This document shows, piece by piece, positions 31,597 to 32,792 of a stretch of 64,000 bases of DNA. This DNA comes from Escherichia phage WPEC6. Each line of letters opens with the position of its first letter. The first letter of the stretch is position 1. The DNA lies in sequence record PV763039.1, one strand, 5' to 3'. Under the pieces are notes generated by a model, which made no database searches, was not told the origin of the DNA, and saw nothing but the letters and a program-made list of their open reading frames with translations. The translations under genes and the position numbers were made by a program.

Positions 31597-32100
31597 TTGA
31601 TGGGTGTAGCAACAATAGCTATCGGAAGAAGCGGTATAGATGAGTGCTATCAAACGGGACTCGTAAAACCTAACGAATTTCGTCAAATTTGTGTAAACCA
31701 TATTGAAAAAGAGATTGCTCTTACTTTAGAGAATATGACCCTCCGAGATAAACTGGAAATGTTTAAATGTTGGTGTCTAGGAGAAGATTGGCTTTTAAAC
31801 CATTTTCAAGAACTTTCTGATAGTAAAGAAAGCTTGTTTGATTGTATAATAGGAATAGCTGGCTCCGATCCTAGCCTTCTGCACATAACAGAAGAAGAGG
31901 CGAAGTTACTGTTCTTAAGTAATTTGTTTAATAAGAAAGCACTGCTTGTTCGTGATTGCAGTGATCTTCTTAATAACCCGCTCGCAACGTCTGATCAAAT
32001 TTTTGTTGACAAAGAGACACTACGTGCGATAGAATACATCTGCAAATATGTGAATGGCGGGAAAGCGGTTCTTAAAACATTAACAGAGGAGGAAGAATAG
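31597..32100 (+). CDS. hypothetical protein
   Basis: ORF track 167 aa; RBS aaggagga. Confidence 0.55.
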   Translation: MMGVATIAIGRSGIDECYQTGLVKPNEFRQICVNHIEKEIALTLENMTLRDKLEMFKCWCLGEDWLLNHFQELSDSKESLFDCIIGIAGSDPSLLHITEEEAKLLFLSNLFNKKALLVRDCSDLLNNPLATSDQIFVDKETLRAIEYICKYVNGGKAVLKTLTEEEE

Positions 32101-32792
32101 TGACGACAATTATTGCGACCAAAAATAAGATTTTGAGTGACGGTAAGGTAACTTTTGGTGGACGTGTAGATTCTATTAATTTCAAAAAGGTCCGAAAAAT
32201 TGGAGATTACCTTGTAGGTGGTGCTGGTCGTCTGACCTCCGTGCTTTCTTTCTTTCAATGGTTTGAACAAAATCTACAGTGCGAAGCAGCACGTGATGCT
32301 GTCCCTGGTTTGATGATTCACTCTGATCCAGATAAAGAAGATGAAGAGTTTATTGCACTTGTTGTTCATCCAGATGGACGTATTTTCCTGCACGAAGGTA
32401 ACAACCCAACACGTGCATATCCGATTGATGAAGAATATTATGCGGTAGGAAGCGGGTCAGACTTTGCTTTAGCTGCTCTTGATGCAGGAGCAACACCAGA
32501 ACAGGCTATGGAAGTAGCTAAAAAGCGAGATGCTTTTTCTGGTGGTGAAACATTTATTGAAGAACAAGATGAGATTATTGAATTAACAGATGATGATTTA
32601 GAAAACTTCTCCAAAGAAGAATTAATCAATCTTTTGAAATTCGGTAATCCCTACGGTGAAGAAGAACCTCGTAACGTGGCAGGTAACGAGGCGGATACTG
32701 AAGAAAAATCTGTTGCAGAAAACAACTTGACTTCTAAATCTGAAAATATTAATCTCGTAAATGTGGCGGATTTCGAAGAAACCGCTATTTAA
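32100..32792 (+). CDS. HslV-like Ntn-hydrolase peptidase with acidic C-terminal extension
   Basis: N-terminus M-TTIIA (Thr after Met), KKVRK, AVGSGSDFALAALDAG align with E. coli HslV TTIVSV / KKVRR / AIGSGG. Confidence 0.65.
   Translation: MTTIIATKNKILSDGKVTFGGRVDSINFKKVRKIGDYLVGGAGRLTSVLSFFQWFEQNLQCEAARDAVPGLMIHSDPDKEDEEFIALVVHPDGRIFLHEGNNPTRAYPIDEEYYAVGSGSDFALAALDAGATPEQAMEVAKKRDAFSGGETFIEEQDEIIELTDDDLENFSKEELINLLKFGNPYGEEEPRNVAGNEADTEEKSVAENNLTSKSENINLVNVADFEETAI

Follow-up and report, generated by a model that had tools for sequence, protein, structure and literature searches.

A PPH-type proteasome homologue with an acidic C-terminal tail in a PhoH-linked gene module of Escherichia phage WPEC6

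Genomic context of the peptidase gene

The sequence analysed here is a window of 64,000 nucleotides from Escherichia phage WPEC6 (record PV763039.1), a phAPEC8-like myovirus that infects E. coli, belongs to the genus Phapecoctavirus (Stephanstirmvirinae) and shows 100% identity to phage WPEC1 over 5 kb. At 32100..32792 on the plus strand it carries an open reading frame (ORF) with a GTG start, which encodes 230 amino acids (aa) followed by a stop codon. A first-pass annotation made from the sequence had placed the ORF at the same coordinates and had read it as an HslV-like peptidase. In many genomes the gene already bears GenBank labels of this kind ("HslV family peptidase", "ATP-dependent protease subunit", "putative 20S proteasome"). 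Our analysis indicates a proteasome/HslV-fold N-terminal nucleophile (Ntn) threonine peptidase that is not a true HslV. Set against the published description of the PPH and RPC groups, the protein is a PPH-type phage proteasome homologue that lacks the second helix (H2) and carries an extension.

The peptidase gene is the last gene of a compact unit. It is preceded by a gene for a PhoH-like P-loop ATPase (30755..31564, plus strand; PF02562, 1.2e-36; PHROG 170, 1.2e-64), which opens the unit two genes upstream of the peptidase and was absent from the first-pass annotation, and by a gene for a conserved 166-aa protein of unknown function and fold (31600..32100, plus strand; PHROG 14834). Where the 166-aa gene meets the peptidase gene, stop and start codon share one nucleotide (taGtg). 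A Shine-Dalgarno sequence, GAGGAGG (32086..32092, plus strand), could be read 7 nucleotides 5' of the GTG. Six nucleotides past the peptidase stop codon, the unit ends with a terminator-like hairpin, TGCCCCTTCGGGGGCA, followed by TTTCTT (32798..32820, plus strand, with the hairpin at 32798-32813). This hairpin, a consensus match only, probably closes the transcription unit. The region's best sigma-70-like site, located inside the 166-aa gene (TTGACA-18-TAGAAT, 11/12 matches, 32006-32035, plus strand), was considered as an internal promoter of the peptidase gene. It was rejected because its hexamers are not kept at synonymous sites in relatives, and the match is probably a fortuitous by-product of the conserved peptide VDKETLRAIEY.

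Fold and catalytic residues

The peptidase matched the PHROG 1040 family ('peptidase HslV family') at 4.5e-63 and the Pfam Proteasome family PF00227 with 25.6 bits, above the gathering cut-off of 22.4 bits. HslV of T. maritima (1m4y) was matched by sequence at 4.9e-9. The AlphaFold (AF2) model of the protein had a mean predicted local distance difference test (pLDDT) score of 86, with values above 90 in the core, and a Foldseek search with this model gave a probability of 1.0 for HslV, BPH and 20S beta subunits; template modelling (TM) scores for the HslV structures were 0.66-0.69 on the target. The profile scores, the alpha-beta-beta-alpha sandwich and the catalytic set place the protein in the proteasome/HslV Ntn-hydrolase superfamily. 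The earlier reading as a Thr1-type, HslV-like peptidase is thus borne out by PHROG 1040, PF00227, Foldseek and the intact catalytic set, and structure prediction, which had been proposed as its check, yielded a fold of the Ntn type.

The catalytic core comprises aa 1-160 (32100..32579, plus strand) and is 52-89% identical to that of relatives. The N-terminus reads MTTIIA, so that Thr2 (codon 32103-32105) corresponds to Thr1 of HslV after removal of the methionine. Asp14 (32139-32141) and Lys30 (32187-32189) correspond to HslV Asp17 and Lys33, Gly43 to Gly48, and Gly117-Ser118-Gly119 (32448-32456) to G123-S124-G125, all these codons being on the plus strand. The two stretches that had been aligned with HslV in the first-pass annotation are present, KKVRK at aa 29-33 and AVGSGSDFALAALDAG at aa 115-130. 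In an alignment of 213 relatives with the authentic E. coli HslV from the MG1655 hslVU locus, Thr1 and Gly123 were found in all 213 relatives, Lys33, the oxyanion Gly48 and Gly125 in 211 each, and Asp17 in 210; Ser124 was kept in 195 and replaced by Thr in 13 more. Because these catalytic residues are conserved across relatives to near invariance, they argue for a predicted active enzyme. Like E. coli HslV, the peptidase has no propeptide, and 198 of 233 homologues start with MTT. Methionine aminopeptidase favours small second residues.

In phage vB_EcoM-Ro121c4YLVW (P0025), the gene was called as 159 aa from the internal Met72, leaving out the catalytic N-terminus, probably because of an error in gene calling or a frameshift. 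A role as prohead protease was also considered for the peptidase and was rejected because its gene is surrounded by genes of nucleotide metabolism and is remote from those for portal and capsid.

Relationship to HslV and to proteasome homologues lacking H2

The peptidase shares with HslV (ClpQ) the Ntn beta-sandwich, Thr1 generated by methionine removal, Asp17, Lys33, the Gly-Ser-Gly loop and the motifs KKVRK and GSG..A.AA, and HslV proteins are its best matches in the PDB by sequence and by structure. However, the identity to HslV is about 22-26% (about 22-24% to E. coli HslV), and the protein fails both NCBIfam HslV equivalog models, scoring 31.4 bits with TIGR03692 (cut-off 157.75 bits) and 32.2 bits with NF003964 (cut-off 137 bits), more than 100 bits short in both cases. 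In the AF2 model, helix H1 (aa 45-67) is followed by a 17-residue coil (aa 68-84) where HslV and proteasome subunits have H2. The first hairpin is four residues shorter than in HslV, an acidic tail is added, and no hslU was found beside the gene, elsewhere in the window or in a complete relative genome. By equivalog score, H2 and hslU alike, the protein thus differs from HslV proper.

Proteasome homologues lacking H2 have been described as the PPH and RPC groups by Fuchs, Alva and Lupas in 2021 (PMC8665760), in whose view no true proteasome-like protein of viruses had been known before PPH. We place the peptidase with the PPH type because H2 is missing and because the non-tailed relatives nearest to it are short phage forms (130-160 aa; E-values 1e-10 to 1e-14). 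It shares with PPH the affiliation to group I (related to HslV and BPH), encoding by tailed phages, the catalytic triad and oxyanion glycine, and the lack of both propeptide and H2; the H2-less core and the residence in tailed phages or prophages are therefore as described for PPH. On the other hand, PPH is described as a compact protein of about 140 residues without extension, whereas here a 160-aa core is joined to an appendage of about 70 aa, and the gene of the window peptidase is linked to PhoH in a module not seen with the short phage forms. The comparison was made with the published description of PPH, whose reference sequences (CLANS cluster) include WP_042125023.1.

RPC proteins, too, combine a core lacking H2 with a C-terminal extension for which no known structure gives a match, but they have been reported as more divergent and only from proteobacterial genomes, whereas the clade studied here is phage-borne. 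A scan of bacterial genomes, one per species (185,579 species), with a 9-sequence alignment as query revealed no close relative of the peptidase, and returned just genuine HslVs at 25-37% identity and a contaminant contig of 425 bp. This contig (JAPMLR010000072.1), from Lysobacteraceae bacterium JHOS43, encodes a protein 100% identical to residues 68-208 of the phage peptidase and most likely reflects coliphage contamination of the assembly. BPH (5ovs, 5ovt) is likewise a stand-alone group I homologue with no known ATPase partner and is among the top structural matches. Unlike the phage protein, BPH is bacterial, keeps all four flanking helices, forms heptameric double rings and has no acidic tail.

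Homologues of the peptidase were found in 235 phage records, and BFVD holds 46 viral models with a proteasome fold, so that proteasome homologues are common in phages. The WPEC6 peptidase belongs to an already catalogued, uncharacterised phage family, here in a tailed form. Correcting the usual "HslV family" label to an H2-less, HslU-independent PPH-type peptidase shifts the sensible experiments away from HslU docking to stand-alone activity and to the search for partners.

C-terminal extension

The C-terminal tail consists of 73 aa (158-230) with 20 Asp/Glu and 5 Lys/Arg residues and a net charge of -15. The first-pass annotation was right about its Asp/Glu-rich character, but the length of roughly 80 aa that it gave was an overestimate. 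The first of its two parts is a conserved helical motif, ELTDDDLENFSKEELINLLKFGNPYG (motif A; aa 161-186, 32580..32657, plus strand), which is modelled as two short helices (164-169 and 172-181) with pLDDT of about 90. Nearly all long forms, including those of 32-40% identity, have the pattern LT.E.L..[ML]SKEE[IL]L..LF[GP] behind the core; motif A is about 50% identical in the near clade and occurs once within the window. The second part of the tail (aa 187-230, 32658..32789, plus strand; 12 Asp/Glu, 3 Lys/Arg) is acidic and predicted to be disordered, with pLDDT of 48-59 and no secondary structure. Outside the genus its identity is 0-26%, while that of the core is 52-89%.

Tails of at least 30 aa are present in 126 of 185 family members, and 96% of these are net negative, with a mean of -0.16 charge per residue. 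Other lineages swap or lengthen the region of aa 187-230 with further modules. These features suggest that the appendage is modular and lineage-specific and that selection acts on its composition, not its sequence, as expected of an outward docking or regulatory handle. C-termini in the family have been described as generally pointing away from the assumed rings (PMC8665760).

A search of Pfam gave no match for the WPEC6 tail, and its assignment to a known domain was rejected; the distant relative P0120, which has another C-terminal module, gave sub-threshold matches to Rho_N and Ish1. That module, L..lA..L.vKYAHNIG.EKLR.RI, ends many of the long-tailed relatives (P0102, P0111, P0120, P0133 and L005, 4001-4888) and resembles helix-extended-helix (SAP/Rho_N-like) motifs. 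For motif A of the WPEC6 tail, a SAP/HeH-like character is conceivable. Another group of relatives ends in a Cys-rich region plus ...KWRLHNA.

Conservation of the PhoH module and its deletion in phage VEcB

Long-form relatives with peptidase identities down to about 47% all preserve the order PhoH, 166-aa protein, peptidase, and do so even when a lysozyme of a non-homologous family has taken the place of the neighbouring one. An upstream PhoH is common to all long forms with at least about 34% peptidase identity; in the Aeromonas and Vibrio clades (34-38% peptidase identity) it is found 2-3.5 kb upstream, and the 166-aa gene is missing. Among the short-form relatives (130-160 aa), no PhoH was found within 10 kb in 20 loci. 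The PADLOC catalogue of defence and anti-defence systems yielded no match to the peptidase and none to its two small neighbours.

Two adjacent HslV-family genes in Aeromonas phages prompted the idea that the 166-aa protein is a diverged, inactive HslV paralogue, comparable to an alpha subunit. This idea was rejected, as the protein shows no BLASTP similarity, is mostly helical and has no proteasome-fold match. The adjacent genes of Aeromonas phage 2L372D (L007; 3432-3983 and 4001-4885) encode a divergent 183-aa paralogue that keeps Thr1, Asp and Lys with GCG in place of GSG, and a 294-aa long-tailed form, which may form a hetero-oligomeric phage proteasome-like particle.

The module is intact in 55 of 56 related records, the sole exception being phage VEcB (NC_052663.1; L054). 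In VEcB, an in-frame deletion of about 1.35 kb joins PhoH residue ~115 to peptidase residue 63 (2501-3304), removing the 166-aa gene and the Thr1/Asp17/Lys33 region of the peptidase, and the resulting chimera is annotated as 'peptidase HslV family'. An independent genome comparison reported that exactly these proteins differ between VEcB and phage BME3 (PMC12210895). Because VEcB is a viable isolate that lost the module, the module is dispensable for propagation on a laboratory host. It is otherwise retained, which fits an accessory role. The modular acidic tails, the PhoH/166-aa/peptidase module and the natural deletion mutant VEcB are entry points for functional work; so far, none of them suggests surprising biology.

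Absence of HslU and possible modes of action

The search for an HslU-like ORF was negative in the window and across all 149 kb of the complete genome of anhysbys, a close relative (best E = 3.2); HslU is not annotated in that genome either. HslU was found beside the peptidase gene in none of 49 related phage loci, compared with 68 of 79 bacterial HslV loci examined as a control with the same search. The lack of this partner is therefore a trait of the whole phage family, and the earlier statement that no AAA+ unfoldase gene lies near the peptidase extends, as far as HslU-like proteins are concerned, to the window, the anhysbys genome and the 49 loci.

We consider it probable that the WPEC6 protein is an HslU-independent, H2-less phage proteasome homologue of the PPH/RPC group with an appendage, encoded by the last gene of the PhoH/166-aa module. 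Going beyond the anatomy described above, we infer an HslU-independent threonine peptidase whose appendage recruits a partner or substrate; such a role fits because related phages swap the tail region for other modules. Host methionine aminopeptidase would remove Met1 and expose the Thr1 nucleophile, as in E. coli HslV. In the infected cytoplasm the enzyme might then act, independently of HslU, on peptides, unfolded proteins or a specific target. Its C-terminus, facing away from the catalytic body, could serve as an outward docking or regulatory handle, with selection presumably maintaining the negative charge of the disordered tail and not its sequence. The module would be accessory, not essential.

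Several points weigh against this interpretation. A literature search found no experimental work on any PPH-type member, and the peptidase activity, the oligomeric state and the substrates are predictions. H2 is an inter-subunit contact helix in proteasomes, and with its loss HslV-like rings may not form; indeed, ring formation has been questioned for several homologues (PMC8665760). The synteny with PhoH may reflect gene order inherited by common descent and not function, and the VEcB deletion, known from a single record, could be a stock-specific mutant.

The first-pass annotation had proposed that the phage core plugs into host HslU, either using its hexamers as an unfoldase to retarget degradation or blocking the host HslVU. 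This proposal has some grounds, since the E. coli host has adjacent genes for HslV and HslU and the phage protein shares the fold and catalytic residues of HslV. HslVU is present in gamma-proteobacteria, the group to which the known hosts of the long-form clade belong. Peptidases of the HslV type are also weak alone and are activated by HslU, the C-terminal tail of which enters a pocket between HslV subunits formed by Phe54 and Phe57 of H1, Ala79 and Lys80 of H2, and Gln114 (PMC6429459). However, the phage protein has no H2 and hence no Ala79/Lys80 share of the pocket, so that half of the HslU-tail pocket is without a counterpart. As pocket evidence only the absence of H2 was used, because the large MAFFT alignment misplaced Gln114. 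Lys28 of HslV, presumably a contact of the HslU carboxylate, is replaced by Ser in the window protein and by Ser, Gln or Asp across the family. With the low identity to E. coli HslV, the equivalog shortfall, the placement in the PPH/RPC group and the family-wide lack of linkage to HslU, none of the features required for canonical HslU docking was found in the phage protein. The proposal is therefore not supported, and we regard such docking as very unlikely.

Two related possibilities were rejected. The tail was examined as a mimic of the C-terminal activating peptide of HslU with a position matrix built from 30 distinct real HslU C-termini. Its best score was -4.0, where shuffled sequence averaged -3.6 and genuine HslU reached about 20.7; the mean z over the family tails was 0.6, and the extreme C-terminus is not conserved between genera, which also counts against mimicry. 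The sole classical AAA protein of the anhysbys genome, gp074 (379 aa; PF00004, PHROG 2376; 39443-40582 of that genome, L001, outside the window), was considered as a dedicated partner, but it lies about 44 kb away and its phyletic distribution is unlike that of the peptidase. Its family is present in phages of Enterococcus, Bacillus, Staphylococcus and Lactococcus, which are without the peptidase, and was found in none of the peptidase-bearing phages of Vibrio, Caulobacter and Rhizobium. The gp074 family is common to Herelleviridae-like phages of Gram-positive hosts and is labelled 'FtsH-like protease' in one record.

The linkage of the three genes raises the question of whether they form one machine, in which the PhoH-like ATPase would replace HslU as an energy-dependent partner of the peptidase and the 166-aa protein would be an adaptor or cap. 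The gene order that survives the lysozyme exchange, the persistence of PhoH upstream in the Aeromonas and Vibrio clades, the one-nucleotide overlap of the 166-aa and peptidase genes and the single VEcB deletion affecting all three genes speak for such a machine. Yet PhoH proteins are superfamily 1 (SF1) helicase-like, RNA-associated NTPases and not known protein unfoldases, and the best models for the window PhoH are PhoH, PhoH2 RNA helicase and RecD-like proteins. Moreover, the short forms are without a nearby PhoH, the Aeromonas and Vibrio clades are without the 166-aa gene, the linkage is possibly just inherited order within one broad phage lineage, and a deletion of adjacent genes is no evidence for joint function. 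Overall we judge a joint machine unlikely. Quite unlikely, too, is a more specific form of the idea, that a proteasome-type peptidase works with a PhoH-family NTPase in place of an AAA+ unfoldase and with the 166-aa protein as a third part, the acidic tail and helical motif coupling the components or recruiting substrate. If true, such a machine would give phoH, which is widespread in phages and functionally obscure, a concrete role. The Ntn site might also serve another reaction, such as ligation or transpeptidation (as in connectase), site-specific processing of a single phage or host protein, or hydrolysis of small-molecule amides. Proteasome-like homologues do include a ligase, connectase, and many forms with insertions that seem incompatible with rings (PMC8665760); the phage peptidase lacks H2, and the variable C-terminal modules of its relatives suggest recognition of specific partners. 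Against this, the full set of proteasome/HslV catalytic residues is conserved, all the closest structural relatives that have been characterised (HslV, BPH and 20S beta) are peptidases, and we found no positive evidence for alternative chemistry. We consider a use of the site other than protein degradation quite improbable beside the HslU-independent peptidase favoured here.

Other genes in the window

Upstream of the module, the window encodes an RmlC-like dTDP-4-dehydrorhamnose 3,5-epimerase and an RmlD-like reductase (28443-29845, plus strand). In VEcB, a glucose-1-phosphate thymidylyltransferase gene also adjoins the Rml-like genes, pointing to a phage-borne dTDP-sugar pathway. Downstream, at 34454-35044 (plus strand), a 196-aa protein carries the PHROG 4806 label 'histidyl tRNA synthetase'. 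Pfam gives no match for this protein, and an enzyme of that kind would be far larger, so that the label looks unreliable; a second copy of the PHROG 4806 family is present elsewhere in the genome of a relative.

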